Of a DNA stretch of 64,000 bases, positions 16,075 through 42,558 are shown in pieces. Positions within the stretch are counted from its first letter, which is position 1. Every line of letters begins with the position of its first letter. The stretch lies in IMG/VR virus record IMGVR_UViG_3300045119_000180, positions 32,001 to 96,000 of that record, one strand, 5' to 3'. The notes beneath the pieces are model-generated. The model had not been told where the DNA came from, did no database searches, and saw only the letters and a list, made by a program, of their open reading frames with translations. The stretch is from a virus. The translations under genes were made by a program, and so were the position numbers.

Positions 16075-16584
16075 TTGAAGCCGGAGATTAAGAGAAATAA
16101 ATGGGGTGTTCGTATTTGTGAGCACAACAGATTACAATATCGATGCAAAGAATGTGACGGAAGTCTAATTTGTGAGCATAATAGACGACGAAATGATTGC
16201 ATAGAATGCGGCGGTGCTTCAATCTGTGAGCACAAAAGACATCGAAATCGTTGTAAAGAGTGTCGCCCTTTAGGTTGGGCTAAAGTTAAATTGAAACAGA
16301 TGCGTCAACGTTCTCGAAAAGGTGGATACAAAATCCCTGATATAACACCAGAGAGAATTTTGTTGCTTAGCACAAAAAAGAACTGCCTTATGTGTCATTT
16401 GCCTTTTACGTTAAACAACAACCCGTCTTGTCTTCATCATAATCACGAGACCGGTGAAGTTTACGGGTTCGCTCATAGGGATTGTAATCGAATGGAGGGT
16501 TTTTTCGGTAAATTGACTACGGCTCAGCAGGTTCGTTTTTTACAGACTCAATTCCCGGATGTCGTCAAGGCACTTAGAAAATGA
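16075..16584 (+). CDS. EndoVII-type (homing) endonuclease with N-terminal CEH-x-R-CxxC repeats
   Basis: Three CEH...CKEC-type repeats; LHHNHETGEVYGFAHRDCN. Confidence 0.75.
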   Translation: MKPEIKRNKWGVRICEHNRLQYRCKECDGSLICEHNRRRNDCIECGGASICEHKRHRNRCKECRPLGWAKVKLKQMRQRSRKGGYKIPDITPERILLLSTKKNCLMCHLPFTLNNNPSCLHHNHETGEVYGFAHRDCNRMEGFFGKLTTAQQVRFLQTQFPDVVKALRK

Positions 16585-17771: not shown

Positions 17772-18703
17772 CCGCAGACTTGAACGCCATAGAGACTCGG
17801 GTAGCTGCTTGGTTGAGCGGCTGTCAGTCGCTATTACAAGTGTTTTACGATAATCAAGACCCGTATATATCGTTTGCAAATCGTATGACGGGTATTATGT
17901 ACGACAAGTTGGCCAAAGATCTTAAAAGCGACAATCCGGCCGTAAAAGCCGCGGCTAAAGGTCATCGCCAAGTCGCTAAACCAGGCGTTTTAGGCTGCGT
18001 TTACCGTCTAGGTCCGGGCCAGATAAGCACCAATAAGCACGGCGATCAGGTCAAAACAGGCTTGTGGGGCTATTCAGAGGCTATGGGCGTTTCAATGACG
18101 CAGGATAAGGCCCAGGAGGTAGTTCAGGTCTTCCGCCAGTCATATCCGGAGATTTGCGAGATGTGGTATAGCCTTGAGGAAGCCGTTTCAGACGTTCTGA
18201 AGGGCCAACGGACAAAACGCGAATTAGGGCCTGATGGCTGCATCAAGATCGATAAGATACCGAATGGTGATACCGAGATCCTACGTATCCAGTTGCCCAG
18301 TGGGCGCCGATTGCACTATCTAGAGGCTCAGATCAAGCCTACCAAGATGCCTTGGACCAAACTGAACGACCAGGGCGAAGAGGAAGAAGTTTATAAGCCT
18401 ACGTTGAATTACGCCTCAGTTGACCAGGAAACGAAGCAATGGGGTTATACTACCAGTCATGGTGGTAAGATATTTGAGAACATTGTTCAAGGTACGGCTC
18501 GAGACGTCCTGGCAGAGCAAATGCTAAGATTCGAAGAGTGGCATTTGAATATCGTTGCTCACGTTCATGACGAAATCATCGTAGAGTGCGATACGGACGA
18601 ACTGAAGTTGGCTGAAGAGATAATGTCACGGAGTATTGATTGGGCTCCTGGTTTGCCGTTGGCCGCTGAAGGATGGCGAGGAAATTACTACAGAAAGGGT
18701 TGA
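17762..18703 (+). CDS. family A DNA polymerase, C-terminal part (palm/fingers)
   Basis: ADLNAIETRV (motif A), RQVAK..VLGCVY (B), ENIVQGTARD, HVHDEI (C). Confidence 0.9.
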   Translation: MFIAADLNAIETRVAAWLSGCQSLLQVFYDNQDPYISFANRMTGIMYDKLAKDLKSDNPAVKAAAKGHRQVAKPGVLGCVYRLGPGQISTNKHGDQVKTGLWGYSEAMGVSMTQDKAQEVVQVFRQSYPEICEMWYSLEEAVSDVLKGQRTKRELGPDGCIKIDKIPNGDTEILRIQLPSGRRLHYLEAQIKPTKMPWTKLNDQGEEEEVYKPTLNYASVDQETKQWGYTTSHGGKIFENIVQGTARDVLAEQMLRFEEWHLNIVAHVHDEIIVECDTDELKLAEEIMSRSIDWAPGLPLAAEGWRGNYYRKG

Positions 18704-23665: not shown

Positions 23666-24040
23666 ATGACAGAAAAAAGCAACAAAGCATTCGGCGTAAA
23701 CGAATTAAAGCCTAACACGAGCCATTTGATCCCGGGCAAGACCGGCGACGGTAGTAACGCCGACCCGCTTACGACTGGCAAGTATTCACGGCAGGAAGTT
23801 GATGAATTGATTCAATTGGGTAAGGAGGCGAGAGGCGAATTAAAGCCGATGGTTCTTCCTGAAGAGTTTAAAAATTGGGGTGAAGGAGACGTCAGTTCGA
23901 CTCCTGTAGAAGACGATTATAAGTTCATAGATACAACTCCGTATGGCGTACAAGAGCGATTGACCAGTCTTGAGAATAAATTCGAAGAGCTTCAAAGCCG
24001 TTTGGTCAAGGCGTTTAAACACGCAGGATTTAACTTTTAA
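23666..24040 (+). CDS. hypothetical protein (C-terminal coiled coil)
   Basis: GAGG SD. Confidence 0.65.
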   Translation: MTEKSNKAFGVNELKPNTSHLIPGKTGDGSNADPLTTGKYSRQEVDELIQLGKEARGELKPMVLPEEFKNWGEGDVSSTPVEDDYKFIDTTPYGVQERLTSLENKFEELQSRLVKAFKHAGFNF

Positions 24041-24825
24041 TGGATTTAAGCAAAGTCAGCATCGGGATTCGTACTTTTTTACGCGATGAGTGCTTAAAAA
24101 ATTCTATCGCAGCGATTCGCCGTACGATGCCTGACGCTAAAATGATAATTGCAGACTGCGGAGAGCATACGCAGGAAAAGTATGATCTTTATTCAGAGCT
24201 TAGCCGGGAAGGGCATTTGTGCTTTACGCTTCCATGGGATTCCGGATTTGGCTGTATGAGCAATTGTATTGCGAGCGCAGCAACTCGGCCCTATCTTTTG
24301 ATTGGCAGTGATGATTTCGACTTTAATCCTCCGGAAGTAAGAAAAGGGATTGAGTCTTTCGTGGAGTGTTTGGATAACTGGCCGACTTTAAGCGTTGTTA
24401 GCGGACGGGTCAATAATAAATTTTATGAGTATTACTTAGAAGACAAAGGCGACGAAATTAAAGAGTCGCCAGCTCTGTGGGGTATTTATGCCGCGGCAAA
24501 TCAAATTATTCCCTGGCTCTATCCAATTGATCTGACGGTTAATTACTGTTTAGTTCGAAAAGAAGTATTTCAGAAAGTCCAATGGGATCCAGAGGCTAAG
24601 ATAGGGCAAGGTGAACACGGTTCGTGGTTCGTGGATATCAAGCGAGCAGGTCTTAAAGTAGGTTGGATACCCGGAGTTAGCATTAGCGAACAGCCGAATC
24701 AGAACAGTGATCGATATCGTGAATTCCGTAATAGAGCTAGGAGCCCCGAAAGAAGTTGTTTTAAGAAACGCGGCATTAAGAAGTATGTTTTAGGTTGCGG
24801 AACAGTCGACTATGAAGAGACGTAA
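24040..24825 (+). CDS. glycosyltransferase family 2 (GT-A)
   Basis: VSIGIRTFLR, IIADC, SDDF, WDP...GEH..WF. Confidence 0.85.
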   Translation: MDLSKVSIGIRTFLRDECLKNSIAAIRRTMPDAKMIIADCGEHTQEKYDLYSELSREGHLCFTLPWDSGFGCMSNCIASAATRPYLLIGSDDFDFNPPEVRKGIESFVECLDNWPTLSVVSGRVNNKFYEYYLEDKGDEIKESPALWGIYAAANQIIPWLYPIDLTVNYCLVRKEVFQKVQWDPEAKIGQGEHGSWFVDIKRAGLKVGWIPGVSISEQPNQNSDRYREFRNRARSPERSCFKKRGIKKYVLGCGTVDYEET

Positions 24826-25306
24826 GAAGTGTACTAAATGCGGAGAAATAAAGCACTTTTCTTGTTTTTCGCCGGACAAAAGGGATGAAAAAGGCCGTCT
24901 GCGTTGGCGAATGGGCGTTTGTACTGCTTGTAGGTCCGAAGGTTTTAAAAAGAAGTACTGGAACGACCCTGTGGCAGCAAGGAGAAATGCCAGGAAAAAT
25001 AGGACCTCAAAAAAGATGAGGGACTGGAATTTAAGATTTGCTTATGGAATAACTCTATTGGAGTGGGAGGATATTTTTACAAAGCAGGGCCGACAGTGTG
25101 CTATTTGTAAAAGAAAGAAACCAATTGGTCTAGGTTGGGCGACAGATCATAAAGGTTGGCATTGCAGAAGAGGTAAATTACGTAAAAGAATAAGAGCAAT
25201 TTTATGTCAACATTGTAATACTCTTTTAGGCCAGGCAAGAGAGTCGGTAGATATTTTAAAAGCGGTAATTGCGTACATAAGAAACAATAAATGGGCAAAT
25301 TATTAA
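24812..25306 (+). CDS. EndoVII-type homing endonuclease
   Basis: CTKC...CTAC; YGIT, QGRQCAIC, DH...IRAILCQHCNTLLG. Confidence 0.85.
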   Translation: MKRRKKCTKCGEIKHFSCFSPDKRDEKGRLRWRMGVCTACRSEGFKKKYWNDPVAARRNARKNRTSKKMRDWNLRFAYGITLLEWEDIFTKQGRQCAICKRKKPIGLGWATDHKGWHCRRGKLRKRIRAILCQHCNTLLGQARESVDILKAVIAYIRNNKWANY

Positions 25307-25983
25307 TATCTATAAAATCATGCCGTCGCGACTGGATGCGCGGCGATCATGACGTCATTCGCTCGACGTGGGGCAAGGATGTTCCCGAAGGCGTTGATTT
25401 ACGGTTCTTTATGGGCACGGAAAGTTATAGGCTATGTACCGACGGCGATGAAGAATGGTTGGATGTTAAAGACGATTACGATTCACTCCCTCAAAAGGTT
25501 AAGGCTATTTTTAAATGGGCTTTAGAAAAACAATATGACTACATTTTCCTTGCGGACACGGATACGTTCGTTATACCAAAACGCCTTATTGCGCTTCCTT
25601 TTCAAGACTATGACTTATCTGGTCGGTTCGGGAAAATTAAGCCTATTGGCGAGACCTTTAGATATATTGACGGACGAGATATTGTTTACGACCCCTGTTG
25701 GCCCTGGCCAAGCGGAGGGTGCGGTTATTTTGTATCGGCTAAAGGTGCCGATTATATTTTACGTACAGGATTTACAGGCTGGGCCGAAGACATTCAGTCA
25801 GGCCAAGCACTCGGACCGCTGGAAAAACTAGGCTTGGTAAAGATAGGCGATCTAGAAGATCTCGAGTGTAAGGCATCGTGGCATTTTCCGCGGTGGAAGT
25901 ACAATCAGGAAGTTTACCATCCCCGATATGGTTGGCAAGAGAAGATGTATAAAGAGCATAATGAAAATAGCGATAGTCATTAA
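25291..25983 (+). CDS. GT31 (galactosyltransferase/Fringe-like) glycosyltransferase
   Basis: IRSTWG, DDYDSLPQKV, ADTDTF, SGGCGY..S, AED...G. Confidence 0.8.
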   Translation: MGKLLISIKSCRRDWMRGDHDVIRSTWGKDVPEGVDLRFFMGTESYRLCTDGDEEWLDVKDDYDSLPQKVKAIFKWALEKQYDYIFLADTDTFVIPKRLIALPFQDYDLSGRFGKIKPIGETFRYIDGRDIVYDPCWPWPSGGCGYFVSAKGADYILRTGFTGWAEDIQSGQALGPLEKLGLVKIGDLEDLECKASWHFPRWKYNQEVYHPRYGWQEKMYKEHNENSDSH

Positions 25984-26668
25984 ATCATGCCAGCGCGATA
26001 AATACGCCGGCTGCCATTGGGCAATTAGAGAGACGTATGCCAACACTCTGCCAGCTGGCGTAGATCTTTATTTTGTTATGGGCGGCCCTAGGATAGAACT
26101 GCCGTCAGAAATCTTAAAAGACGAATTATGGTTCGACGTAGACGACGGCTATTGGGAGCTACAGCCTAAAGTCAAATTGGCTTGTAAATATATAGTTGAC
26201 AATAACTACGATTTTTGTTATTTTGCAGACACTGACAGTTATTTAATCGTGCAAGAATTGCTCAAATCCGGGTTCGAAAAGTACGACTTTTCAGGCGGCC
26301 ATTTGTGCGGCCGTAATCACGGAGAGAATCAATTTGGCGTTAAATATCCGGCTTATAAAGACAGCCACGGAGCGACATTGCCGCACCTTTATGTCTATCT
26401 GTCCGGAGGCGTAGGCTTTTTCGTGTCAAACAAGGCGGCTAAAGCATTGGCCGAGACGGATATGTACTTTCATTCAGAGGATGTCTGGGCCGGCCAAGTC
26501 ATCGGCCCGTTTATAGAGCGTGGCGAGATGACAGCTAGTCTGCTGCCGTTCGTAGAGCATCATTCGGCCTGGCATCTTAATTGTGGCTATTACGGCGGCG
26601 GACATACGGAACGGCTTAATGCCGGTGATGCAGTAAGGCGTAAGCATAAGGACCTTGGGTATATATAA
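25961..26668 (+). CDS. GT31-like glycosyltransferase (tandem paralog)
   Basis: IRETYA, DGYWELQPKV, ADTDSY, SGGVGF..S, SEDVWAG. Confidence 0.8.
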   Translation: MKIAIVIKSCQRDKYAGCHWAIRETYANTLPAGVDLYFVMGGPRIELPSEILKDELWFDVDDGYWELQPKVKLACKYIVDNNYDFCYFADTDSYLIVQELLKSGFEKYDFSGGHLCGRNHGENQFGVKYPAYKDSHGATLPHLYVYLSGGVGFFVSNKAAKALAETDMYFHSEDVWAGQVIGPFIERGEMTASLLPFVEHHSAWHLNCGYYGGGHTERLNAGDAVRRKHKDLGYI

Positions 26669-26889
26669 TGAGTGAATTCATCGATGATGAAATCGAGCGG
26701 GCGGGATTGAGTATCAGTGCCCAAGCAGGGCAGTGGGTACGCGACAAGCTAGCCGAGGCGGGTATCAGCCAGGAAGAGATTGACCACATCATGCATGAAG
26801 CGGTTAAGGACGTGATTGTGTCGGCTGTATGTCCGTATTGTCAAGGATATAAGTTAACCCGCAAACCGTGTCCGTGTTGCGAAAGATAA
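26668..26889 (+). CDS. small Zn-ribbon protein
   Basis: CPYC...CPCC. Confidence 0.55.
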   Translation: MSEFIDDEIERAGLSISAQAGQWVRDKLAEAGISQEEIDHIMHEAVKDVIVSAVCPYCQGYKLTRKPCPCCER

Positions 26890-26897
26890 AGGAGATT

Positions 26898-27698
26898 ATG
26901 CGCATCTTAGTTACAGGAAGTTCCAGCTACATTGCTTCAGGCGTTTTACCGCGGCTTTATAGGGCTTTTCCGACGGCGCTGATCTCTTTATGCGATCTTA
27001 AGAACGGCCAGGATTTCGGCGAATTTAAAGGTCATCACTTCAACGTCGTACTACATATCGGCGCATTAAGTACGATTGTCGACTCCGGTAGCAAGGCTGA
27101 TTATATGCTGGACGTCAACGCTTTCCGAATCTTGAAGTTTCTACGTAATAACACGGTTGATAAAATCTTATTCCCGTCAACTGGAGGAGCTATTTATGGC
27201 AATAGGACGACGCCAGCTAAAGAGTCAGATGCTACTTGGAGCGGGTGTGTTAATCCTTACAGCCAGTCTAAGTATATCGCTGAAAGGATTATTCGGGAAT
27301 TATGCCACAATCATACGATTCTTAGGCTTGGTAACGTCTTTGGTGGTGATATGGATAGCCGGACAGAGGCGTTGGTTTTGACGCATTTTGCGCATGACAA
27401 TCCAATTATTGTTTACGGTGGTGATCAGACCAGGGATTTCGTCCATCTAGACGTCGTTAGCGAAGCGTTCATTAAAGCTATCCAACTAGATGTCACCGGG
27501 ACTTTTAATATCGCTAATGGCGAGTCTATCCGATTGATGGACCTAGCGGAGAAATTTTCGGCTTATCGTCAGGTGCCAATTGAAATGCGTCCGCACAGGC
27601 CTGAAGAGATGATTGATGTGGCGTTGGATGTCACGGCAGCCAAAAAGGCCGGATTGATTCCGAAGAAACAGAAGAACGATTATCTAGGGGTTCTTTAA
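26898..27698 (+). CDS. NAD-dependent sugar epimerase/dehydratase
   Basis: ILVTGSSSYIA, STGGAIYG, YSQSK, R.GNVFG, QTRDFVH. Confidence 0.9.
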   Translation: MRILVTGSSSYIASGVLPRLYRAFPTALISLCDLKNGQDFGEFKGHHFNVVLHIGALSTIVDSGSKADYMLDVNAFRILKFLRNNTVDKILFPSTGGAIYGNRTTPAKESDATWSGCVNPYSQSKYIAERIIRELCHNHTILRLGNVFGGDMDSRTEALVLTHFAHDNPIIVYGGDQTRDFVHLDVVSEAFIKAIQLDVTGTFNIANGESIRLMDLAEKFSAYRQVPIEMRPHRPEEMIDVALDVTAAKKAGLIPKKQKNDYLGVL

Positions 27699-28312
27699 TG
27701 CCACAAACTTGGCCGCCTCAAACGGAATTGTGCGAATTAGCTACGAAATACGGTACAGATAAATACAATTGGCATTCCTACACTCCACACTATCACCGCC
27801 TGCTTAACGACCGCCGCAACGAAGTCCGTAAAGTTCTGGAGATCGGTATTGGCGACCCGTCTAGTATGTCAGATCCGACTGGCAAGCCTTACGTCCCCGG
27901 TGCCAGTTTGCGTATGTGGGCCGAATATTTCCCGAACGCCGAAATTTATTCTTTGGATAGTCAGGCTAATCTTCTGATCAACGAAGGCCGGATCCGTTCT
28001 TTCCAGTGCGACCAAGGCGACCGGCATAGTTTAGAAATGGCTATGCCAAAGCTAGGCGCGGGCTTTGATCTTATCGTCGACGATGGCAGCCATGTTCCAG
28101 AGCATCAAGCGTTGACGGCTACAATGTACGTGCCGCTATTGGCGCCGAACGGCGTTTATATCATTGAGGACGTCTGGCTGTATCCCAGTCAGGTCGGTTG
28201 GTCCAAGGAGCCGTTCGGATTGAAACTGGAAGATATCCCGTATAAAACGGAAGTACTTTACGGCGAAGGCAATAATGACGACAGATTGATTTTAATAAAG
28301 GCTGGCAGATGA
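27698..28312 (+). CDS. SAM-dependent sugar O-methyltransferase (MycE/TylE-like)
   Basis: KYGTDK..WHSY, VLEIGI, GASLRMW..YFP, DLIVDDGSH, YIIED. Confidence 0.8.
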   Translation: MPQTWPPQTELCELATKYGTDKYNWHSYTPHYHRLLNDRRNEVRKVLEIGIGDPSSMSDPTGKPYVPGASLRMWAEYFPNAEIYSLDSQANLLINEGRIRSFQCDQGDRHSLEMAMPKLGAGFDLIVDDGSHVPEHQALTATMYVPLLAPNGVYIIEDVWLYPSQVGWSKEPFGLKLEDIPYKTEVLYGEGNNDDRLILIKAGR

Positions 28313-28484
28313 ATTGGCGTCTTAATGTAGCTAGTTTACTAGCGATTGTGTTAACACTTATTTATGGCTCAGGATTGTGTTTTGCTGTAGCTCATAAAGA
28401 TAAATTAGGAATTATGGTGTTCGGTGTTGCGGTCCTTATTTGTGGTTTTATGTCTTGGGCATCGGGTTTTGCAAGGCCAAAACC

Positions 28485-29363
28485 ATGAAAATCATCCAGT
28501 GCAACGACTGCAATCCGGAATTGATTCAACCTCAATATGCATCGTTTAAAAAGCATCTTCAAGACGACTTTCAAATGGTTATCTGTAACAGTCTAGAGAT
28601 GGCTAGAGACCCGCGAAAGTGCCAAGAAGTATTAGACGTATGTCATTTGTTAGGTATAGAAACTGTCCAGGCGAAACGCGACAAATCAATTGAACTGTAT
28701 CGCAATACCAACTTTACTTACGGTAGCCCAGAGCCGTTCTTTTCTCCGGAAGGCCGCTTCTGGACGCCCGGCAATGCCGGCAATTATCTTATGCAATGGT
28801 CATGGGAAAAGATCGTCTGCAAACTTAATGGTCCTATTTGCTATACGCATAGCGATGTCTTTCTAATCGAGCCTATTAGATTTACAGACTATCTAAAAGA
28901 CTATCAAATATGTTCAATTCTGCCGAATAAGCCAGCCCAAAAAGGTCATGGCTTTATGCAATATCTTTGGGAGCCGCTATTGTTGGTCGATATGGATAGG
29001 CTGCCCAGCCCGGAAACAATGATTTGGTGGCCTAGCGAAGTTGAAAACGAATGGACGGATACCGGAGGCAGGACGTATTACTATCTACGTGACCATCCGG
29101 AATTAAAGGTTCTAGAATTAGGCCAGTCGAGCAGTATAATAGGCGATGCGCCTAATGACGACGATTTTAAGGATCCGACAGTAGACTTTCATCCAACAAG
29201 ATATCGCTTCATTCATTTCCCAGATAAACGGGCGTTTCATTATATGTCAGGGACCAGGTGGTGTACAGATTCGGAGCACGGGTGGAATTGGCCAAAAGAA
29301 AAGGCTGATGAATACCACCGACGAAAGATGGCTTGGACTCGTAAACTAGCAGGTATTGAATGA
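28485..29363 (+). CDS. putative GT-A glycosyltransferase
   Basis: Q..SFKKHL, HSDVFLI (DxD variant), TDTGG, HY..GT.W. Confidence 0.6.
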   Translation: MKIIQCNDCNPELIQPQYASFKKHLQDDFQMVICNSLEMARDPRKCQEVLDVCHLLGIETVQAKRDKSIELYRNTNFTYGSPEPFFSPEGRFWTPGNAGNYLMQWSWEKIVCKLNGPICYTHSDVFLIEPIRFTDYLKDYQICSILPNKPAQKGHGFMQYLWEPLLLVDMDRLPSPETMIWWPSEVENEWTDTGGRTYYYLRDHPELKVLELGQSSSIIGDAPNDDDFKDPTVDFHPTRYRFIHFPDKRAFHYMSGTRWCTDSEHGWNWPKEKADEYHRRKMAWTRKLAGIE

Positions 29364-30319
29364 ATGTAGCTCTTATTGGCGCGGGTAAAATTGGTAGAAT
29401 CCGGGCGGAAGTTATTCGTCAGTCTGAATCACGATTGGTGGCTGTTCATGATGCCAACGATATTGCTGCAGCTAAATTAGGTCTTCCGGTTTCTTTGGAC
29501 TTTATTATGACGGCTAAAGACATTAATGCAGTCGTAATTTGTACGCCTACTAAATACCACATGCCTATCGCGGTATCGGCGTTACACGCCGGTAAGCACG
29601 TTCTTTGTGAAAAGCCGCTAGGGCGGACATTACAAGAAGCTAAACTGGTAGTTCAAAATGTTTTGCCAGGGCAGATTCTGCATTCCGGATTTAATTACCG
29701 CCATTTAAGCCATGTAAAACGAGCGAAGAAGATTATCGAAAGCGGCGTTCTCGGTGATTTGATGTTCTTTCGTTCCCGTTTTGGGAACGGCGGCCGACCG
29801 GGGTATGGAAAAGAATGGTGTACGCAGAAGGATCTTGGTGGTGGCGGCGTAACGATCGAGCAGGCAATTCATGTCTTTGATCTTATTTCGTTTCTTTTCG
29901 GAGACCCTGAGCGAATTGTAGCAAATATGGATCTTTGCTATCACGGTTTTCCCGATACTGAAGATAATGTCTTTTGTATGATTAAAACGTCTGGCGGTAC
30001 AGCCACCGTGCATGTTAGCTGGACGCAATGGACGAATCTCTTTGAAGTAGAGATATTCGGCACAGAAGGTTATCTAAGGCTGGAAGGTCGTGACGGCTCT
30101 TATGGCCCGCCAAGGCTGTATCACGGCATCAGGAACGATGACCATACGCGGCCTTTCGAGCATGAAATTGACCTGCCGGATGAAAGTAGTTGGGCTTTAG
30201 ACTGGGCTGAATTCGAACAAGAAGTAGAATCCGGAATTAATGGTGCGTATGGATTAATGGCGCAGCGAATGGTTGAAGCTGCTTATAAAAGTGTAGATAA
30301 AGGCTGGGTTAATATATGA
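29360..30319 (+). CDS. Gfo/Idh/MocA NAD(P)-dependent oxidoreductase
   Basis: IGAGKIG, GKHVLCEKP, GFNYR, GGG....AIH..D. Confidence 0.9.
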   Translation: MNVALIGAGKIGRIRAEVIRQSESRLVAVHDANDIAAAKLGLPVSLDFIMTAKDINAVVICTPTKYHMPIAVSALHAGKHVLCEKPLGRTLQEAKLVVQNVLPGQILHSGFNYRHLSHVKRAKKIIESGVLGDLMFFRSRFGNGGRPGYGKEWCTQKDLGGGGVTIEQAIHVFDLISFLFGDPERIVANMDLCYHGFPDTEDNVFCMIKTSGGTATVHVSWTQWTNLFEVEIFGTEGYLRLEGRDGSYGPPRLYHGIRNDDHTRPFEHEIDLPDESSWALDWAEFEQEVESGINGAYGLMAQRMVEAAYKSVDKGWVNI

Positions 30320-30951
30320 AAGCCTGGATAGTCGGAGCATCCGGAACAATCGGCGGTGCTATTGCGGATAGGTTTCATAACGAAGGCGTTGAGGTCTTTA
30401 GGAAAAAGGTGGAAATAACGGATTATTATGCCATATCATCAACGGCTAATGCCGTCCGACCCGACATTGTAGTTAACTGCGCAGGCGTTTATATTTACGG
30501 AGCTTTTGGCGGTTCTATATTAGATTGGACGAGTGTTATAGATGTAAATCTTACAGGTAGTTTTCATCTTACTAGGGCTGTTCTGCCTAACATGCTTGCT
30601 AAAGGTGGTGGAAAGATTATTCACCTATCAGGCGGGGGTGCTGCTTATGGTCGGCGGCTTTATTCTGCCTATGCGGCCTCAAAAGCTGGCTTGGTAAGGT
30701 TCGTGGAGTGCGTAGCCGAAGAAGTTGAACAATTTAACGTCCAGATCAATTGTATCGCGCCAGGCTCTGTTAAGAGCAAGATGAATCCTAAAGGCACTGA
30801 AACGCCTCAAAAAGCTGTCGAGCTGGCAATGTATCTAGCCTCGCCTGAATCGAGTCACGTAACCGGCCGGTTAATACACGTCAACGAAGACTATAGAAAT
30901 AAGACTGTTTGGGGCGACGAAGACGGCAAGCTTCGAAGGATGCCTTTATGA
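30316..30951 (+). CDS. short-chain dehydrogenase/reductase
   Basis: GASGTIG, NCAG, YAASK, NCIAPG. Confidence 0.9.
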   Translation: MKAWIVGASGTIGGAIADRFHNEGVEVFRKKVEITDYYAISSTANAVRPDIVVNCAGVYIYGAFGGSILDWTSVIDVNLTGSFHLTRAVLPNMLAKGGGKIIHLSGGGAAYGRRLYSAYAASKAGLVRFVECVAEEVEQFNVQINCIAPGSVKSKMNPKGTETPQKAVELAMYLASPESSHVTGRLIHVNEDYRNKTVWGDEDGKLRRMPL

Positions 30952-31241
30952 AAGAATGTAATAGCCAGCCTGTACTCAAAAGCTGCCCTGAGTGCCAGAG
31001 TAAGAAATTGACGTACGGTGGGTATGGGAATACCTTGCTCGGATGTTATAGTCCACCGGGACACGACCACGACAATAATTGTAAAATACATTATTGGAAG
31101 TGCGAAAATGGGCATGATATCAGGGAAAGACAGATTAATGTTTGCCCGGCTGAAGGGTGCAATTGGACATCTGGACAAGATTGTTTTTGCTCCCCTTTAG
31201 GCGCGTGGATAGCTAAAATGGGTCCAGGGATGTATCAATGA
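30948..31241 (+). CDS. Cys/His-rich hypothetical protein
   Basis: CPEC, HDHDNNC, CENGH. Confidence 0.55.
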   Translation: MKECNSQPVLKSCPECQSKKLTYGGYGNTLLGCYSPPGHDHDNNCKIHYWKCENGHDIRERQINVCPAEGCNWTSGQDCFCSPLGAWIAKMGPGMYQ

Positions 31242-32215
31242 TAATTGTCAAAAGTCCGATGCGGATTACACTTGGTGGAGGCGGTACGGATCTGCCGTCG
31301 TATGCTGACAAATACGGAAGTTCAGTCCTTTCTGCAGCTATAAATAAATACGTTTATGTCACGGTTAACGAATCGTTCCGTAATCGAATTACGCTGAAGT
31401 ATTCAAAGATTGAAGACGTTCAAACACCGGACGAAATCGAGCATCCGGTTATTAAAGCAGCTTTGAAGTTTTTAAAAATTGATGGCTCAGTCGACATTGA
31501 CAGCATTTCAGATATTCCCGCAGGAACGGGGCTCGGTTCGTCCGGTAGTTTCACGACTGCACTTTTACAGGCTCTTCATTTGTTTAAGCGGGAAACAATA
31601 ACCAAATGCCAATTGGCGGAGCAAGCCTTTCATATCGAACATGACATTCTTAATCAGCATTGCGGTCGACAAGACCAATATATTGCCGCTGTCGGGGGTT
31701 TGACCATCCTCCGTTTCGGCTTAGATGATATTGGTTATAGGCCCTTGGACATAAGCCGAGAAACTTTAGCTAATCTAGAAGAAGGGCTGATGCTTTTCTT
31801 TACTGGTTACTCCAGATTGGCCACTGGTATTCTTAGTGAGCAGGACATTAGATTACAGCAGGACGACGCCAGAATAACCGAAAATTTGCATCAGATAAAG
31901 GATCTAGGAAGGGCTACTCAGATAGCATTAACGCACGGAGATCTCAACGAATTTTCCAATTTAATGCTTCATCATTGGGATCTTAAACGGGTTCGTTCTA
32001 CGGGTACTACCAATGACGAAATCGACAGATTGTACGAATTAGGGCTTGCAAACGGCGCATTAAGTGGTAAATTAGTAGGAGCAGGTGGAGGCGGCTTTCT
32101 ATTGTTTTATACGGAAGATCGTCAAAGGCTTCGTTCAAGTATGCTTAAAGCCGGATTAAGAGAGGTCAGAATAAGATTCGATTTTGAAGGCACATCGATC
32201 GTGGCTCATATATGA
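31238..32215 (+). CDS. hddA: GHMP sugar-phosphate kinase (HddA/LmbP-like)
   Basis: PMRITLGGGGTD, PAGTGLGSSG, GRQDQY, GKLVGAGGGGF. Confidence 0.88.
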   Translation: MIIVKSPMRITLGGGGTDLPSYADKYGSSVLSAAINKYVYVTVNESFRNRITLKYSKIEDVQTPDEIEHPVIKAALKFLKIDGSVDIDSISDIPAGTGLGSSGSFTTALLQALHLFKRETITKCQLAEQAFHIEHDILNQHCGRQDQYIAAVGGLTILRFGLDDIGYRPLDISRETLANLEEGLMLFFTGYSRLATGILSEQDIRLQQDDARITENLHQIKDLGRATQIALTHGDLNEFSNLMLHHWDLKRVRSTGTTNDEIDRLYELGLANGALSGKLVGAGGGGFLLFYTEDRQRLRSSMLKAGLREVRIRFDFEGTSIVAHI

Positions 32216-32433
32216 TATACTCAATATTTTTCGTCTTGTTTTGGTTAATATGTTATTTTCTTTCGTTCGGGTCGATAGTCGCATATTTTGACGATCAGGA
32301 TGGTGAATGGCCGGGTACAACTAAACGATACGCACTGGCAGTTGCGTGCTTGTTTAGTCTTTTCGGCCCGTTCAGTTTGTTTGTTATGTGGGTTCACGGA
32401 GATCTTTTTAAACACGGTTGGCGGCTGATATGA
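32212..32433 (+). CDS. small two-TM membrane protein
   Basis: Two hydrophobic helices; ATGA coupling. Confidence 0.55.
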   Translation: MIYSIFFVLFWLICYFLSFGSIVAYFDDQDGEWPGTTKRYALAVACLFSLFGPFSLFVMWVHGDLFKHGWRLI

Positions 32434-33476
32434 TATTTACACGAAAATATCTCAACGAAGTGATAGAAATTAGCAGACAAATAGACGAAGATCAGATTAC
32501 AAAGGCTGTCGATATCCTAGCCAACCTGCAGGGCCGGCTGTTCATATTGGGCGTAGGCGGCAGCGCGGCCAATTGTAGCCACGCCGTTAATGACTTCAGA
32601 AAGATCGCCAATATTGAGGCTTATGCGCCGACGGATAACATTGCGGAGCTGACGGCCAGGACGAACGATGACGGCTGGCCATCCGTCTTTGAGAACTGGC
32701 TAAAGGTTAGCAAGCTGAACAGTCAAGACGTTCTTCTAGTTCTTTCGGTCGGGGGCGGAAGCGCTACAACCAGCAAGAATCTCCTTCTGGCAATGGAGCT
32801 AGCAGTTGAAAAGAAAGCAAAGATCATTTCGGTTGTTGGCCGAAAAGATGGTGCGGCCGGCCGATTGTCGGATGTTTGCATTCTTATCCCTAACGTTTCA
32901 GAAGAACGAGTTACGCCGCATACAGAGTCGTTTCAAGCTATCGTGTGGCATCTTATAGTCAATCACCCGAAACTGAAGGCCGGACGGAAGAACAAAGCGG
33001 TCTTTCTAGACCGAGATGGAACGCTTAATGCGTTGTTTGATCAACGAGCCCCGAGGAATTTAAATGAGTTTCTCCTTTTCCCGGATGCTCTACCAGCGCT
33101 CAACGAATTAAAACAAGCTGGGTTTAAATTGATCGTGGTAACTAATCAACCAGACATCTCTCGCGGGGAAAACACATCAGAAGCTGTCAACGCTATTAAT
33201 CAAGAATTGATGAACAAATTGCCGGTTGATCATGTTTATCTGTGCTCTCATTCGGACGAGGATAACTGTTTGTGCCGAAAACCGAAGACTGGTATGTATA
33301 CACTAGCTGTGGATAAGTACAATTTGGATATAACTAAATGCTATATGATTGGGGATACGTCGCGGGATGTAGACGCGGGGTACAACGCCGGGTGTAAAAA
33401 GACATTTCAATTAAGAGACGGAATAAACTTAAAAAGAATTGTAAAAGAAATACTGAAGGATTCTAATGGACATTAA
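32430..33476 (+). CDS. fusion of SIS phosphoheptose isomerase (GmhA/LmbN-like) and HAD bisphosphatase (GmhB/LmbK-like)
   Basis: GVGGSAANCSHAVND, ELTARTND, S.GG.S; then FLDRDGTLN, VTNQ, CxH...CxCRKP, MIGD...D. Confidence 0.9.
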   Translation: MIFTRKYLNEVIEISRQIDEDQITKAVDILANLQGRLFILGVGGSAANCSHAVNDFRKIANIEAYAPTDNIAELTARTNDDGWPSVFENWLKVSKLNSQDVLLVLSVGGGSATTSKNLLLAMELAVEKKAKIISVVGRKDGAAGRLSDVCILIPNVSEERVTPHTESFQAIVWHLIVNHPKLKAGRKNKAVFLDRDGTLNALFDQRAPRNLNEFLLFPDALPALNELKQAGFKLIVVTNQPDISRGENTSEAVNAINQELMNKLPVDHVYLCSHSDEDNCLCRKPKTGMYTLAVDKYNLDITKCYMIGDTSRDVDAGYNAGCKKTFQLRDGINLKRIVKEILKDSNGH

Positions 33477-34167
33477 AATCTTTGCTGACGGCGCCGATAA
33501 AAAGACGATTCTTGAACTGGCTAACAATCCTTTGATCCGTGGCCTGACGACCAATCCAACATTGATGCGCAAGGCCGGCATTAAGGACTATAAAGCGTTC
33601 TGCAAGGATCTTTTGCCCGCAGTCAGCCATCTGCCTATTTCCTTCGAAGTCTTTGAAGACAGCCCGTTGTTGATCTACCACCAAGCCTTGGAGATTGCTT
33701 CGTGGGGCAGTAATGTCTACGTCAAAATCCCAGTAACAAATACTCAAAGACGCGAGATGTATCCGATTATTAACCAACTCAGCCGAGAGGGTGTCAAGGT
33801 TAACGTCACAGCGATTATGACTCTTGACCAGGTTCTGGATTCTGCAGAAGCGCTGAGCCATTCAACGCCAAGTTACATTTCGGTCTTCGCCGGTCGAATC
33901 GCGGATACCGGCAGGGATCCCATTCCGCGGATGGCTAAAGCGCTTAAGATCATCCGCGATATCAGCCCGCAGACGGAATTGATCTGGGCCAGCCCTCGTG
34001 AAGTATTAAATATTGTTCAAGCCGATGAAATTGGCTGTGACATCATAACGGCTACGAAAGACATCCTGGATAAGCTGCCGCTTCTAGGTAAGAACCTTGA
34101 TGACTATAGTCTCGACACCGTTAAGATGTTTTATAAAGATGCCCAAGAGTCCGGGTATAAGCTATGA
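33466..34167 (+). CDS. transaldolase (short type associated with sugar-nucleotide clusters, LmbR-like)
   Basis: IFADGA, TTNPTL, YVKIP, NVTAI, YISVFAGRIAD, WASPRE. Confidence 0.9.
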   Translation: MDIKIFADGADKKTILELANNPLIRGLTTNPTLMRKAGIKDYKAFCKDLLPAVSHLPISFEVFEDSPLLIYHQALEIASWGSNVYVKIPVTNTQRREMYPIINQLSREGVKVNVTAIMTLDQVLDSAEALSHSTPSYISVFAGRIADTGRDPIPRMAKALKIIRDISPQTELIWASPREVLNIVQADEIGCDIITATKDILDKLPLLGKNLDDYSLDTVKMFYKDAQESGYKL

Positions 34168-34979
34168 TTACTACGATGCTTCAAGGGGGCATGAGTAATC
34201 AACAATTCCAATATGCGATGGGCTACGCTCGTGCCAAGGATCTAGGAGTCGAGTTGGAGTTGGACATCACTCTTCTGCAGAATGACAGGATGCGGAAATA
34301 CTCAATGGGTCTGTGGGCCGGAGTTAAAGAGAATTTGACGTTTGGTAAGCGGTCGACAGTTAATGAAAGGCAGATGCCTTACGATATAGATTTGGTGACG
34401 GACATTAAAGACGGCGATGTATTACGTGGATATTTTCAGGATGAGAGGTATTTTAAGCAGTATCGCAAAGAACTGTTGGAGATATTTCGCCCGAAGCAAA
34501 TGCTATCTGATCGAGGGTTTGAAACAGTAAAGAAGATTTATCAAAAAGGGCACCAAAGTACTTTTCTTACTGTACGCCGAACGGACTATCTTAATTCAGA
34601 CTATCACGGTGTTCTGGACATGGCGTACTATTTAGAAGCTTGCCGGATAGTGGCTGAGCACGTTCCGCCATACTTCTTCGTGTTTTCTGATGAGCCCGAA
34701 TGGTGCAAGAAGAATTTTCAAATCCCATATCCTTTCGAAGTAGTAGGAACGTATGACCAGACCAATCACGATCATCTAGGCCGTGAAGACGAAGACTTGT
34801 GGCTGATGAGCCGCTGTAAAAACGCTGTGCTAGCAAACTCCTCGTTTTCATTCTGGGGTGCTTGGATGTCTCCTTACGATACAGAGAACCGCATGGTAGT
34901 TGGTCCTAAGAAATGGTTTGCCAACGCACCAGGGGTCGACTCTAGCGAAGTTATTCCGAAACGGTGGACGGCGATATGA
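34164..34979 (+). CDS. GT11 (alpha-1,2-fucosyltransferase-like) glycosyltransferase
   Basis: GGMSNQQFQYA, GYFQ, VRRTDY, FVFSD, NSSFSFWGAW. Confidence 0.9.
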   Translation: MITTMLQGGMSNQQFQYAMGYARAKDLGVELELDITLLQNDRMRKYSMGLWAGVKENLTFGKRSTVNERQMPYDIDLVTDIKDGDVLRGYFQDERYFKQYRKELLEIFRPKQMLSDRGFETVKKIYQKGHQSTFLTVRRTDYLNSDYHGVLDMAYYLEACRIVAEHVPPYFFVFSDEPEWCKKNFQIPYPFEVVGTYDQTNHDHLGREDEDLWLMSRCKNAVLANSSFSFWGAWMSPYDTENRMVVGPKKWFANAPGVDSSEVIPKRWTAI

Positions 34980-35602
34980 GTTTTTACGATTTCCCTAAGC
35001 ATCTTCTGGATCTACAGGCTAAACAGCACGAACGATATTGGCACGATGCCGGCAATTATATGCTTATCGGTCAATTCAAGTTAGATCACGATAGTGTAGT
35101 TATAGATGTCGGAGGCTATAAGGGTAATTTTACCGCATCTATTCTCGATAAGTATAATTGTATAGTTGATGTATACGAGCCGGTTAAAACTTTTGCGGAA
35201 GACATCGAAAAACGCTTTTACGATAATAAATGGGTTACAGTTCACAATTATGCCTTAGAAGATCGCGACTATACTGTTCCGATAGCCGGCATGGACGAAG
35301 GCAGCAGTATATTTTTTCCTTGCGATAAAGACGCCGAGAAAGTTGAAGTCCGCGATGTCGTTAAGGAGATATATGGCGATGCGGATCTTCTAGCGCTGAA
35401 CGGCGAGGGCTGCGAGTATCCGGTTCTGGAGCGGTTAATTGAAACCGGTAAGATTAAGGATATTAAAAACATTTTAGTTCAGTTTCATATCTTTGTCCCA
35501 GGTGCTGAAAATCGCCGTAATAAAATTAGAGAAGAATTAAACAAGACGCACAAGGAAATGTTCTGCTACGATTTCTGCTGGGAGGCCTGGACACTTAAAT
35601 GA
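34976..35602 (+). CDS. FkbM-family methyltransferase
   Basis: VIDVGGYKG, YEPV, LNGEGCEY, VQFH. Confidence 0.85.
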   Translation: MSFYDFPKHLLDLQAKQHERYWHDAGNYMLIGQFKLDHDSVVIDVGGYKGNFTASILDKYNCIVDVYEPVKTFAEDIEKRFYDNKWVTVHNYALEDRDYTVPIAGMDEGSSIFFPCDKDAEKVEVRDVVKEIYGDADLLALNGEGCEYPVLERLIETGKIKDIKNILVQFHIFVPGAENRRNKIREELNKTHKEMFCYDFCWEAWTLK

Positions 35603-40063: not shown

Positions 40064-40990
40064 ATGAACATCAAACAGCAGTCTGAAATTTACATACGTC
40101 TTTTGACTAGTCGGAAGCGTAATCCGGCTAAACCTTCAACTCTTAATAGCTATAATTGCTATTTAAGACGGTGGATCGTGCCAGAAATAGGTTCTATTGA
40201 TTTAATAGACTACGAAAATGGCGCGATGAAAGACTTTATAGTTAAACTGGATGAAGCCGGACTGTCCCCGGCTACCATTGCAGGTATTCAGAATTGTGTT
40301 AAGGGTATTGTTTCCAGTGCAGTAGACGAAAACGGTAATGAAATTTATGCTAGAAAATGGAATACTGAGTTCATTGATGCTCCGCCGGTTGTAGCAAAAG
40401 ATCAAAAAGCACCTACAATAACGTCACAAAAGCTCCAGGAAGCGATATCTAAAGCCGAGGCTCCGTTCGGTCAACTGTTGGCTTTTCTAGCCGGATCGGG
40501 GCTGAGAGTGGGCGAGATGCAGGCTTTAAAGGTAGGTCCACAGGTTAAATCAAGTTATTGGGATCCCGATGAAAGTAAGCTGGTCGTCCGGATGACGATT
40601 TACCGCGGTAAAGAGCAAACGACCAAAACGCCAGCTGGCAACCGGGAAGTGGATATCTGCAGCACATTGAACGACCTGCTGAAGGGGTTAAACCGTAAAG
40701 ACGGCGAATGGTTGTTCCACGGCCGTACAAATGGCGTTATCAGGCCGATGACGGTATACGAAAAGGCGAAACAACTGGAGATTCCGCCTGTTCATAGCCT
40801 TCGAAGGTTCCGATTGACGTATCTTGAGAATTCCGGGGCGCCTATGAGTCTGGTTAAGTTCTGGGCCGGCCATGCAACAGGGGATATCACGGAGCGGTAT
40901 ATCAAGTCGCGGGAGAATATCCAACTGAGAAAAGATTGGGTTGAGAAGATAGGATTAGGATTCAACTTAAAAGGAGAACAAAATGACTAG
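40064..40990 (+). CDS. tyrosine recombinase/integrase (short, lacks the N-terminal extension)
   Basis: GLRVGE, TKT, HSLRR, GH, ERY catalytic residues. Confidence 0.9.
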   Translation: MNIKQQSEIYIRLLTSRKRNPAKPSTLNSYNCYLRRWIVPEIGSIDLIDYENGAMKDFIVKLDEAGLSPATIAGIQNCVKGIVSSAVDENGNEIYARKWNTEFIDAPPVVAKDQKAPTITSQKLQEAISKAEAPFGQLLAFLAGSGLRVGEMQALKVGPQVKSSYWDPDESKLVVRMTIYRGKEQTTKTPAGNREVDICSTLNDLLKGLNRKDGEWLFHGRTNGVIRPMTVYEKAKQLEIPPVHSLRRFRLTYLENSGAPMSLVKFWAGHATGDITERYIKSRENIQLRKDWVEKIGLGFNLKGEQND

Positions 40991-41171
40991 TAAAGAAATA
41001 CGTGAGTTGCCTACATCTCTAACGGGGGAGTACGGCGAAGGTCAGCTTGACGCTACGCAAAATAGAAAGGTAGAACTTATGTTGTTGCAAGAGATAGCCG
41101 CCCAACTGGCCGAGGCTAACGAATTACGGCGTAGCTCGGCAGATGCAGTGGGAAGGACTGGGCCGCGATGA
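40983..41171 (+). CDS. hypothetical protein
   Basis: AAGGAG SD. Confidence 0.55.
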   Translation: MTSKEIRELPTSLTGEYGEGQLDATQNRKVELMLLQEIAAQLAEANELRRSSADAVGRTGPR

Positions 41172-41350
41172 GTAGGCCAAGTAGGCCAATTGAAGGCCAT
41201 ATCCGAGACTTAAGTGATTGCAAATCCTCGAGTTATGTGTTCTTAAGTCTCGATATGGCGGAAGCACGGGAAACTGTCTGACCGAATAACTAGTTTCTTT
41301 TCTGTATCTAAGCGGACTTTCGTAGTCCGATGAGTTGGCCAGGTTGGCCA
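41166..41350. other. putative attP (arm-type direct repeats flanking an inverted repeat and a tRNA-3'-end-like segment)
   Basis: 23-bp imperfect direct repeat 41166-41188/41328-41350; 18-bp inverted repeat 41196-41214/41242-41259; at the 3' end of the integrase. Confidence 0.55.
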
Positions 41351-42558
41351 GGTAAAGTAAATCCCATACCAAGCCGTTCAGCCCACTCAAGCCTTATTGG
41401 TCGATCATTCAAAAGATGCACATACGTCTCGGAGATGTGCGTCTGCGCGTGCCCGGACCAGAAGTGCTGGAGCGACTTTGGTACGGGGGACAGGTCAATG
41501 TGCTTCATCCGGAACCGGCGGAAGATGTTAAAGCCGCCGATCGGTAGGTTCAACTGTTTCAGTACCGGGTGCAGGTGGTCGTTGAGAAGGTTCGCCTGAC
41601 TCAGTTGTGTCCCTTTCGTGTTCTGGAACAACAGGCCAGATGCCCTCGAGCCAACGTGGTTGCGTAGCATGTCTGCGAGTTCCGTGCACAGGTCTACTTC
41701 CCTTTCACCGTTCTTGGTTTTGAGGTACGGCTGGATAACACCTCGTTTGGCTTTCTGGTTGATGACGAGGGTTCTGAAGTCACCCGATATGTGACGAATT
41801 TCGAGTCCAAGAGCCTCTCCAACTCTAAGAGGTCCGCATCCGGCAAGGAGCGCATATAAGACTCCAATCTGGCCTGGGCTATTTCGGATAATTGCCGAGA
41901 TTCCTTCGGCGTCAACTGTAGGTTGATTTTGGTCTTTGACGATTGGCGCATCGATATATTCCTCTTTCCACTTTCTTGGGAATAGTTCTTCACCGTTGTC
42001 GTCGATCGCAGATGCAACGACGAGTTTGGCGATAAGCGTATAGTCGCGGATTGAAGACGCGGCAAGGTTGGCGCCGACGAAGTATTCAACCAATTCCTTC
42101 ATCGTACGGTTGGAGATAGCAGAGAGCAGTTCGGGGCCAATTCGGGGGTAGAGCCACTTGTCAAGTGTGTAGCGGCGGTTAGATATGGTTGTAGCTTCAA
42201 GCGGGTTGCGTTTGCGATTGGCCAACAACTTTAGCCATTGTTCGCCTTGCTGCTGGAAGGTGACATTAGACGTCGATTCGATGAAGGTTTGGTTAGAGTT
42301 GATACCGAGAGTTTCGAGCCGCTGACTAGCAGCCCTAGTTGCGATCGTCCTGGTCCGGCAGGGTCCGAGAGATACAACTTCCCGCCGGCGGGATCCGTTC
42401 GCGTCTCGCCAAAATTGCAGATATGCTGGTGCGATTGGATCCCAGATGTCCGTAATCCTACGTCCTTTCTGAAATACATAACCCTTTTGGTAAGAACGCC
42501 TTGCCAAAGAAGGCCCTCGCTTTCTGCGAGGAATTGCAATCGCGGACAACTCTATCAT
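41308..42558 (-). CDS. int: tyrosine integrase (full length)
   Basis: RRSYQKG N-terminal domain, PLRVGE, KTKNG, FRR, GH, ETY. Confidence 0.9.
   Translation of the reverse strand: MIELSAIAIPRRKRGPSLARRSYQKGYVFQKGRRITDIWDPIAPAYLQFWRDANGSRRREVVSLGPCRTRTIATRAASQRLETLGINSNQTFIESTSNVTFQQQGEQWLKLLANRKRNPLEATTISNRRYTLDKWLYPRIGPELLSAISNRTMKELVEYFVGANLAASSIRDYTLIAKLVVASAIDDNGEELFPRKWKEEYIDAPIVKDQNQPTVDAEGISAIIRNSPGQIGVLYALLAGCGPLRVGEALGLEIRHISGDFRTLVINQKAKRGVIQPYLKTKNGEREVDLCTELADMLRNHVGSRASGLLFQNTKGTQLSQANLLNDHLHPVLKQLNLPIGGFNIFRRFRMKHIDLSPVPKSLQHFWSGHAQTHISETYVHLLNDRPIRLEWAERLGMGFTLPGQPGQLIGLRKSA

Follow-up and report, generated by a model that had tools for sequence, protein, structure and literature searches.

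We analysed a 64,000-nucleotide stretch (the window) of the IMG/VR virus record IMGVR_UViG_3300045119_000180 and found that its positions 24040-35602 hold an island of sugar-pathway, glycosyltransferase and methyltransferase genes, in which a sugar-pathway cassette of bacterial type is present without its activation gene. The island probably comprises two modules in one translationally coupled operon, namely this cassette, which would depend on the host for activation of its sugar, and a glycosylation module; the substrates, products and acceptor given below are those that we infer from sequence. What is new is the linkage, in a soil phage, of the cassette with an extensive set of glycosyltransferase and methyltransferase genes, together with the conserved loss of the activation gene; annotated phage heptose-type genes beside glycosyltransferases were already known (Cr30, SynMITS9220M01).

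The source record is 104,074 bp long, has direct terminal repeats and is rated complete. The window covers its bases 32001-96000, and its GC (guanine plus cytosine) content is even throughout (0.43-0.52). The island is preceded, on the + strand, by genes for a primase and a family-A-type DNA polymerase in two open reading frames (ORFs); those for a SprT-like protein and a GH108 endolysin follow it downstream, and the minus strand carries two integrase-like genes and large spike/fibre-like genes. Because phage genes stand on both sides, the record is complete with terminal repeats and GC is even, the island is phage DNA rather than a host chimera. Neither the chimera nor the degraded cluster that the initial annotation had allowed for was found: the flanks are those of a phage, the genome is complete and the block is intact. 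Every island ORF lies on the + strand in a gap-free series, with neighbours overlapping or abutting (overlaps of 1-56 nucleotides, mostly of the ATGA type) and with small ORFs in the apparent 200-bp gaps left in the program-made ORF list. Searches of Pfam, NCBIfam and PHROGs bore out the enzyme families that had been proposed, co-oriented and tightly coupled as described, and added to them an Endonuclease VII gene, four small ORFs (two membrane proteins, two Cys-rich) and the absence of a nucleotidyltransferase. A megablast search of the island against 50,697 GenBank phages gave zero matches, so it has no near-identical relative there. The sole sequencing run containing the stretch is a soil metagenome, probably its source, and no RNA run is among the holders. 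Counts from a promoter and terminator scan equalled those of shuffled controls and are therefore uninformative on operon limits.

The cassette, module 1, spans positions 29360-34167 and consists of the following genes.

29360-30319, + strand: NAD(P) sugar oxidoreductase of the Gfo/Idh/MocA family, part of the extended cassette (PF22725 and PF01408; IolG-like, 121 bits)
30316-30951, + strand: short classical SDR (short-chain dehydrogenase/reductase) of 211 residues, part of the extended cassette (PF00106, E = 4e-32)
30948-31241, + strand: Cys-rich ORF of 97 residues (no Pfam match; zero homologues in the fetched loci)
31238-32215, + strand: GHMP anomeric sugar-phosphate kinase, HddA/LmbP-like (PF00288 and PF08544; PDB 3k85, E = 5e-45, also WcbL, 4usk)
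32212-32433, + strand: small ORF of 73 residues with two predicted membrane helices, in the slot of the bacterial-cassette nucleotidyltransferase
32430-33476, + strand: SIS-HAD fusion, in which a divergent sugar-phosphate isomerase (SIS, GmhA/LmbN-like) is joined to a HAD-IIIA phosphatase (GmhB/LmbK-like), from Pfam, NCBIfam and PDB matches
33466-34167, + strand: small transaldolase of TIGR02134 (type 3A), the first enzyme of the cassette (PF00923, E = 4e-44)

The transaldolase scores 308.8 bits against TIGR02134 over residues 2-232, above the cut-off of 281.95, and 84 bits against TIGR00875 (fsa_talC_mipB, TalC/FSA), where the cut-off is 245.95. This type, together with its position beside a SIS isomerase and a GHMP kinase in nearly every related locus, upholds the earlier proposal that the enzyme is biosynthetic and not of the cyanophage TalC style. 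The remaining enzymes score below the cut-offs of the curated heptose families. The kinase reaches 172.3 bits against HddA (NF049969, cut-off 600), which is still its best-scoring family; the SIS domain reaches 47.9 bits against gmhA (TIGR00441, cut-off 209.45); and the HAD domain stays under both GmhB cut-offs (125.2 bits versus 178 for NF006506, 96.8 versus 149.6 for TIGR00213) while exceeding that of the HAD-IIIA subfamily model TIGR01662 (109 versus 44.6). In the PDB the fusion protein matches GmhB (E = 3e-21) and GmhA (E = 1.5e-7). Alignment gives the SIS domain an H-D-E-H tetrad, compared with H-E-Q-H in Burkholderia pseudomallei GmhA, and a 4-residue insertion in the phosphate loop. The fusion has more than 8000 database relatives, of which those from Acidobacteriota show about 50% identity. 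None of the cassette ORFs is truncated; they are translationally coupled and keep their conserved residues. The parallel that had been drawn with the series GmhA-HddA-GmhB and LmbR-N-P-K holds at the level of families, the same ones being present here.

The gene that is missing is the sugar-1-phosphate nucleotidyltransferase. Models PF00483, PF12804 and PF01467 found nothing over the whole 104-kb genome, and all 14 control genomes were positive; custom profiles built from the PF00483- and PF01467-type transferases that neighbour the cassette elsewhere gave nothing in the phage below E = 0.3. Fragments with E > 0.3, some of them out of frame within 28409-29346, were rejected as chance. Two Rossmann-like proteins without assignment were also considered and are glycosyltransferases by fold, and an extra gene of about 230 residues in the related loci L164 and L170 turned out to encode an FkbM methyltransferase. 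In bacteria the transferase gene lies between kinase and isomerase, the place taken in the phage by the 73-residue membrane ORF. With no HddC/LmbO-type gene genome-wide, the statement in the initial annotation that the phage builds its own C7/C8 sugar goes too far: a sugar 1-phosphate is the most that it could reach, and a host enzyme must therefore activate the sugar, most plausibly one from a cassette that the host itself carries. Pfam likewise detected no aminotransferase domain (LmbS) among the island ORFs.

Distribution of the cassette was followed by scans with the SIS-HAD alignment, which gave matches in 123 viral stretches and in more than 595 genomes of bacteria; 160 loci were kept, 80 of them viral. 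In nearly all 160, tblastn placed homologues of the window transaldolase and kinase beside the isomerase. Neighbouring genes were clustered and representatives named, yielding a conserved bacterial core of GHMP kinase, PF00483 nucleotidyltransferase, SIS-HAD and transaldolase, in that order. Many lineages prefix this core with an SDR and a Gfo/Idh/MocA protein (as in L161, L142, L159 and L088), a UDP-glucose-dehydrogenase-like protein and an epimerase, among them Acidobacteriota, Legionellaceae, Coxiellaceae, Methylopumilus, SAR11, Chlorobium, Verrucomicrobiota and Nitrospirota. Homologues of the window Gfo protein (32-45% identical) adjoin the kinase in 24 bacterial and 4 viral loci, and SDR homologues adjoin Gfo in bacterial cassettes. 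Overall, the cassette occurs in bacteria of more than 10 phyla, where it sits in surface-polysaccharide loci with UDP-glucose-dehydrogenase-like and epimerase neighbours. The phage order, Gfo-SDR-x-GHMP-x-SISHAD-TAL (TAL, transaldolase), is the bacterial order minus the nucleotidyltransferase, and module 1 thus appears from sequence to be a partial copy of this widespread cassette.

A search of viral databases for the syntenic cluster had been suggested, and it located one: the transaldolase adjoins SIS in 70 of the 80 viral loci. A GHMP kinase is present in 68, a PF00483 transferase in 15 and a PF01467 (RfaE-domain-II-like) transferase in 46, and ten combine transaldolase and kinase without either transferase. 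The closest relative of the island, L005/G001, is a 142-kb viral contig with eleven island genes in common at 34-60% identity; it has neither nucleotidyltransferase nor HAD. In the kinase tree the window and L005 proteins are sisters with 100% support, and since both phages are transferase-less, this state has been kept in two diverged phages. As a separate observation, the 46 viral loci with the small PF01467 transferase (for example L003, L017, L019 and L038) pair it, rather than PF00483, with the GHMP kinase, a pairing seen in none of the bacterial loci fetched.

The rest of the island, module 2 with the genes interspersed in it, lies on both sides of the cassette.

24040-24825, + strand: GT2-family glycosyltransferase of 261 residues (weak NCBIfam glycosyltransferase matches; ESM Atlas template-modelling score 0.84 to GT2 clusters, feature score 0.99)
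24812-25306, + strand: Endonuclease VII/HNH-type free-standing nuclease among the glycosyltransferase genes (PF02945, E = 4.6e-15)
25291-25983, + strand: GT31-like glycosyltransferase a (PF01762, 29.2 bits, above the cut-off of 23)
25928-26668, + strand: GT31-like glycosyltransferase b (PF01762, 21.2 bits, slightly under the cut-off)
26668-26889, + strand: small ORF of 73 residues with a C-terminal Cys cluster (no Pfam match)
26898-27698, + strand: NAD-dependent SDR of the sugar epimerase/dehydratase family (PF01370, E = 8e-22)
27698-28312, + strand: S-adenosylmethionine (SAM) methyltransferase, Methyltransf_24/TylF-like (phrog_21658, E = 4.7e-19; PF13578 weak)
28309-28488, + strand: small ORF of 59 residues with two predicted membrane helices (hydropathy 2.2-2.3 over 19 residues)
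28485-29363, + strand: GT-A-fold glycosyltransferase of 292 residues, P0121 (AlphaFold2 predicted local distance difference test, pLDDT, 84.5; Foldseek matches KfiA, LgtC, B3GalT5 and ColGalT1, E about 2e-5)
34164-34979, + strand: GT11-family glycosyltransferase (PF01531, 70 bits; phrog_2644, E = 1e-39)
34964-35602, + strand: probable SAM methyltransferase, weakly FkbM-like (PF05050, 17.7 bits, below cut-off; phrog_8156, E = 1e-5)

All island enzymes are predicted to be soluble. The GT2 protein has no Pfam match and a homologue at 34% identity in L005. The two GT31-like proteins are paralogues that match the same L005 and L170 genes, and the second has 54% identical homologues in L164 and L170. 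The GT-A protein also lacks a Pfam match and, with 13 homologues among 5.8 billion proteins, represents a rare phage family; the Atlas agrees with its assignment, and its closest homologue lies together with that of SIS-HAD (P0123 and P0006) on one 100.7-kb contig. GT11, the family of GDP-fucose-using fucosyltransferases, is represented in L005 (two copies), L166 and L170. The methyltransferase at 27698-28312, previously called MycE-like, is not of that kind but Methyltransf_24/TylF-like, and is a probable sugar O-methyltransferase; homologues 57-69% identical to it adjoin the GT-A gene in L005, L164, L167 and L168. The FkbM-like protein has 43-47% identical homologues in L164 and L170. The Endonuclease VII gene does not encode a sugar enzyme. 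For the epimerase, which bears a distant likeness to GalE and heptose 6-epimerase in NCBIfam, a start at ATG 26898 is more likely than the GTG 26868 of the ORF list.

In L164 and L170 a GT31-methyltransferase-epimerase-FkbM-GT-A-MT24 set (MT24, Methyltransf_24) occurs without the cassette, in L170 together with GT11, so that the set of glycosyltransferases, methyltransferases and epimerase is a mobile module in its own right. In L166 a transaldolase adjoins the GT-A gene. The NAD epimerase accompanies the glycosyltransferase/methyltransferase set in L164, L165 and L170, and by this association it belongs to the glycosyltransferase module rather than to the cassette. Its proposed equivalence to LmbM is doubtful for the same reason, because it travels with that set in relatives that have no cassette.

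In the mechanism that we propose, the transaldolase would transfer a three-carbon unit from fructose-6-phosphate or sedoheptulose-7-phosphate to an aldose phosphate, and the SIS domain would convert the resulting ketose phosphate, with seven or eight carbons, to the aldose. The GHMP kinase would phosphorylate this at C1 and the HAD domain would remove the terminal phosphate, leaving a sugar 1-phosphate. The Gfo and SDR proteins may tailor a hydroxyl by oxidation followed by re-reduction, and a host nucleotidyltransferase would activate the sugar 1-phosphate. The five soluble glycosyltransferases of module 2 (GT2, two GT31-like, GT-A and GT11), with its two methyltransferases and NAD epimerase, would then build the cassette sugar and host nucleoside diphosphate (NDP) sugars into a methylated oligosaccharide on a cytoplasmic acceptor. 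The host may be an acidobacterium: the fusion form of the isomerase and the best bacterial identities are suggestive of Acidobacteriota, while the trees give no supported donor.

Several observations weigh against this mechanism or parts of it. The transaldolase tree offers no supported placement or donor lineage for the window gene. The cassette-type transaldolase exceeds its cut-off in 13 of 201 sampled Acidobacteriota species (a tally that includes the unpublished genome G161, which has a sub-threshold match only), so that a host-supplied cassette transferase is not guaranteed. GmhA, HddA and GmhB remain the best-scoring named families for the phage enzymes. TIGR02134, according to its family description, also includes the housekeeping transaldolase of Staphylococcus, and the phage enzyme may just supply sedoheptulose-7-phosphate. 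Finally, the fibre-like protein at 60737-63355 (minus strand; 872 residues, 22% Ser+Thr, 16 Cys) begins with a stretch resembling a Sec-type signal, in which a basic residue is followed by a hydrophobic run and Ala-Gln-Gln; this sits awkwardly with glycosylation in the cytoplasm. One could go further and regard the cassette as a decaying or non-functional passenger, with the glycosyltransferase/methyltransferase set working alone on host NDP-sugars. The absent activation gene, the additional loss of HAD in L005 and the cassette-free sets of L164 and L170 would all fit, but the cassette ORFs are intact, coupled and conserved in their key residues, the same transferase-less layout is kept in two phages that are only about 60% identical, which argues for selection, and ten viral loci share the combination of transaldolase and kinase without transferase; we consider a passenger improbable. 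A more serious contender is an ordinary NDP-D-glycero-D-manno-heptose pathway, in which the transaldolase would only boost sedoheptulose-7-phosphate from fructose-6-phosphate and erythrose-4-phosphate and the GmhA-, HddA- and GmhB-like enzymes would lead to heptose 1-phosphate. The best named matches point this way, phages Cr30 and SynMITS9220M01 have an annotated heptose kinase and phosphoheptose isomerase beside glycosyltransferases, and phage transaldolases are known auxiliary genes of a family that includes housekeeping enzymes. Against it, no phage enzyme reaches the curated GmhA, HddA or GmhB cut-off, all being far below, and the bacterial cassette transferase scores 59-84 bits against HddC (cut-off 300) and is closer to MurU-type enzymes. 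Each of five cassette-bearing bacterial genomes has a separate classical transaldolase elsewhere (215-312 bits), and four of the five have a better GmhA elsewhere (118-200 bits), never adjoining a transaldolase; the cassette transaldolase and isomerase are therefore an extra, strictly paired set. Sedoheptulose-7-phosphate is normally made by transketolase, which makes a dedicated transaldolase in hundreds of species hard to explain, and the Cr30 and cyanophage clusters have no transaldolase beside the isomerase. This pathway as a whole is quite possible without being the reading we prefer. By analogy with LmbR/LmbN, the strict pairing favours a transaldolase product other than sedoheptulose phosphate, and we lean slightly towards an octose-type sugar with ribose-5-phosphate as acceptor; that the product is plain D-glycero-D-manno-heptose has a little under an even chance. 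The boldest version, an octose pathway that would be the first outside lincosamides and the first in a virus, with the sugar O-methylated on secreted spike/fibre proteins and a host that has a cassette of the same kind supplying activation only, is in our view unlikely.

For the acceptor of the glycan, virion proteins are our tentative choice, at somewhat less than even probability. The solubility of the enzymes, the lack of any Wzy_C/ligase family member in the phage genome, the Ser+Thr-rich fibre and a sixth glycosyltransferase near the fibre genes lean towards them, as far as gene content can tell.

43507-44289, minus strand: sixth GT-A-fold glycosyltransferase, outside the island (AlphaFold2 pLDDT 91.4; Foldseek matches GnT-I, E = 3e-9, SpsA and POMGnT1; invariant EED motif)

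This gene stands at the 3' end of the spike/fibre-like minus-strand block, just before an integrase gene, and has no Pfam or PHROG match above cut-off. Its homologues number 207, and contigs of 95-117 kb carry many of them, so that the gene may belong to the core set of this phage group. PHROGs searches with ten minus-strand proteins from the spike/fibre block or adjoining it drew a blank. Alternatively, the island might serve to mask receptors or exclude superinfecting phages by remodelling host exopolysaccharide or lipopolysaccharide (LPS) while the phage infects the cell or persists as a lysogen, and virions would stay undecorated. The phage may be temperate, having two tyrosine recombinases (phrog_1; ORFs at 40064-42558), the bacterial cassette belongs to surface-polysaccharide loci, LPS-type glycosyltransferases and rfaE of pelagimyophages have been read in this way (PMC7029224), and dependence on a host nucleotidyltransferase fits the feeding of a host pathway. 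Yet no flippase, polymerase, O-antigen ligase or priming transferase was recognised in the phage, its glycosyltransferases are all soluble, five to six of them plus methyltransferases far exceed the usual seroconversion modules, and the neighbours of the island are replication and lysis genes rather than the integrases. Such remodelling is rather unlikely, and a host envelope glycan as acceptor we rate equally low. DNA is the least likely acceptor and a very improbable one, because neither a Tet/JBP dioxygenase nor a hydroxymethylase of the thymidylate-synthase type is encoded in the 104-kb genome. The literature does describe viruses whose glycosyltransferases assemble diverse DNA glycans (bioRxiv 10.1101/2023.12.21.572611), and the island shares its strand with the replication genes; even so, besides the missing base-modifying enzymes, the methyltransferases are TylF/FkbM-like, that is, of small-molecule or sugar type and not DNA methyltransferases, and hypermodification of phage DNA comparable to the 5-hydroxymethylcytosine-glycan systems of phages is highly improbable.

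Among characterised systems, one of the nearest, judged by enzyme families and their order, is the lincosamide GDP-octose sub-pathway of Streptomyces lincolnensis and S. caelestis, which runs from LmbR transaldolase through LmbN isomerase, LmbP kinase, LmbK phosphatase and LmbO guanylyltransferase to LmbM, LmbL and LmbZ (PMC4351081 Table 2; PMC12945683; PMC5854111). LmbR makes octulose-8-phosphate for LmbN (PMC5854111, PMC4351081), and LmbZ, which the initial annotation had listed as a reductase, is not simply that but the oxidoreductase with which LmbL is paired for a dehydration (PMC12945683). In both systems a dedicated transaldolase is grouped with an isomerase of the SIS family, a GHMP kinase and a HAD phosphatase, and an NAD epimerase and Gfo/Idh/MocA proteins come afterwards as tailoring enzymes. 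Unlike the antibiotic cluster, the phage glycosylation operon has neither an LmbO-type transferase nor an LmbS aminotransferase, has one Gfo protein instead of two, and has its isomerase fused to the phosphatase, whereas the lincosamide isomerase is fused to a carrier protein. With the GDP-D-glycero-alpha-D-manno-heptose pathway of capsule, S-layer and O-antigen clusters the phage shares the families of isomerase, GHMP kinase and HAD-IIIA phosphatase; it differs in scoring far under the equivalog cut-offs, in changed catalytic/metal residues of the isomerase and in the absence of HddC, and the heptose clusters studied have no transaldolase. The LPS route of Coxiella was considered as an instance of this cassette and set aside, the papers describing an HldE-type heptose route instead.

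Caulobacter phage Cr30 and Synechococcus phage SynMITS9220M01 resemble the window in having a heptose-type kinase and isomerase beside glycosyltransferases and epimerases. Their kinases are 27-35% identical to that of the window, and, in contrast to it, they have no adjacent transaldolase and no attached set of five glycosyltransferases with two methyltransferases; SynMITS9220M01 has annotated nucleotidyltransferases, which the window phage lacks. Virus-encoded virion glycans are found in chloroviruses and mimiviruses, and work by Freeman et al. in Cell Host & Microbe in 2023 reportedly describes virion glycosylation in mycobacteriophages. The operons of the mycobacteriophages and giant viruses share with the island soluble glycosyltransferases and O-methyltransferases (putative in the island), which can make methylated glycans independently of host lipid-carrier machinery. 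We know of no mycobacteriophage virion glycosylation operon with a transaldolase-started sugar pathway. LPS-type auxiliary genes have been discussed for pelagimyophages (PMC7029224), and our literature search found no paper, beyond the lincosamides, on a cluster of transaldolase, GHMP kinase and nucleotidyltransferase or on a phage heptose pathway with a transaldolase.

Lincomycin-type antibiotics are so far the sole case in which a route to higher-carbon sugars that starts with a transaldolase has been demonstrated. The cassette suggests that lincomycin-like logic is in wide use for the surface glycans of bacteria and that phages have repeatedly acquired it, and the retention of the first four steps with the activation step dropped would make a clean case of host-dependent carriage of a partial pathway. 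If the product were on virions, soil phages would join mycobacteriophages and giant viruses among the viruses with glycosylated virions, and this would bear on receptor binding and on the recognition of phage particles. The five cassette proteins are small and soluble, which makes the question of seven or eight carbons answerable in vitro.

A few smaller features of the sequence deserve mention. The Cys-rich ORFs at 26668-26889 (73 residues) and 30948-31241 (97 residues) have CxxC-type clusters and no family match, and those at 28309-28488 and 32212-32433 encode membrane proteins that are translationally coupled within an operon of soluble sugar enzymes. Free-standing nucleases lie between functional genes in two places, the Endonuclease VII at 24812-25306 (+ strand) and an HNH nuclease at 58269-58922 (minus strand). 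The two overlapping DNA polymerase ORFs on the + strand, 16581-17771 and 17762-18703, match positions 669-1001 and 1008-1231 of phrog_17 and may reflect gene splitting, a frameshift or an insertion not recognised as such.

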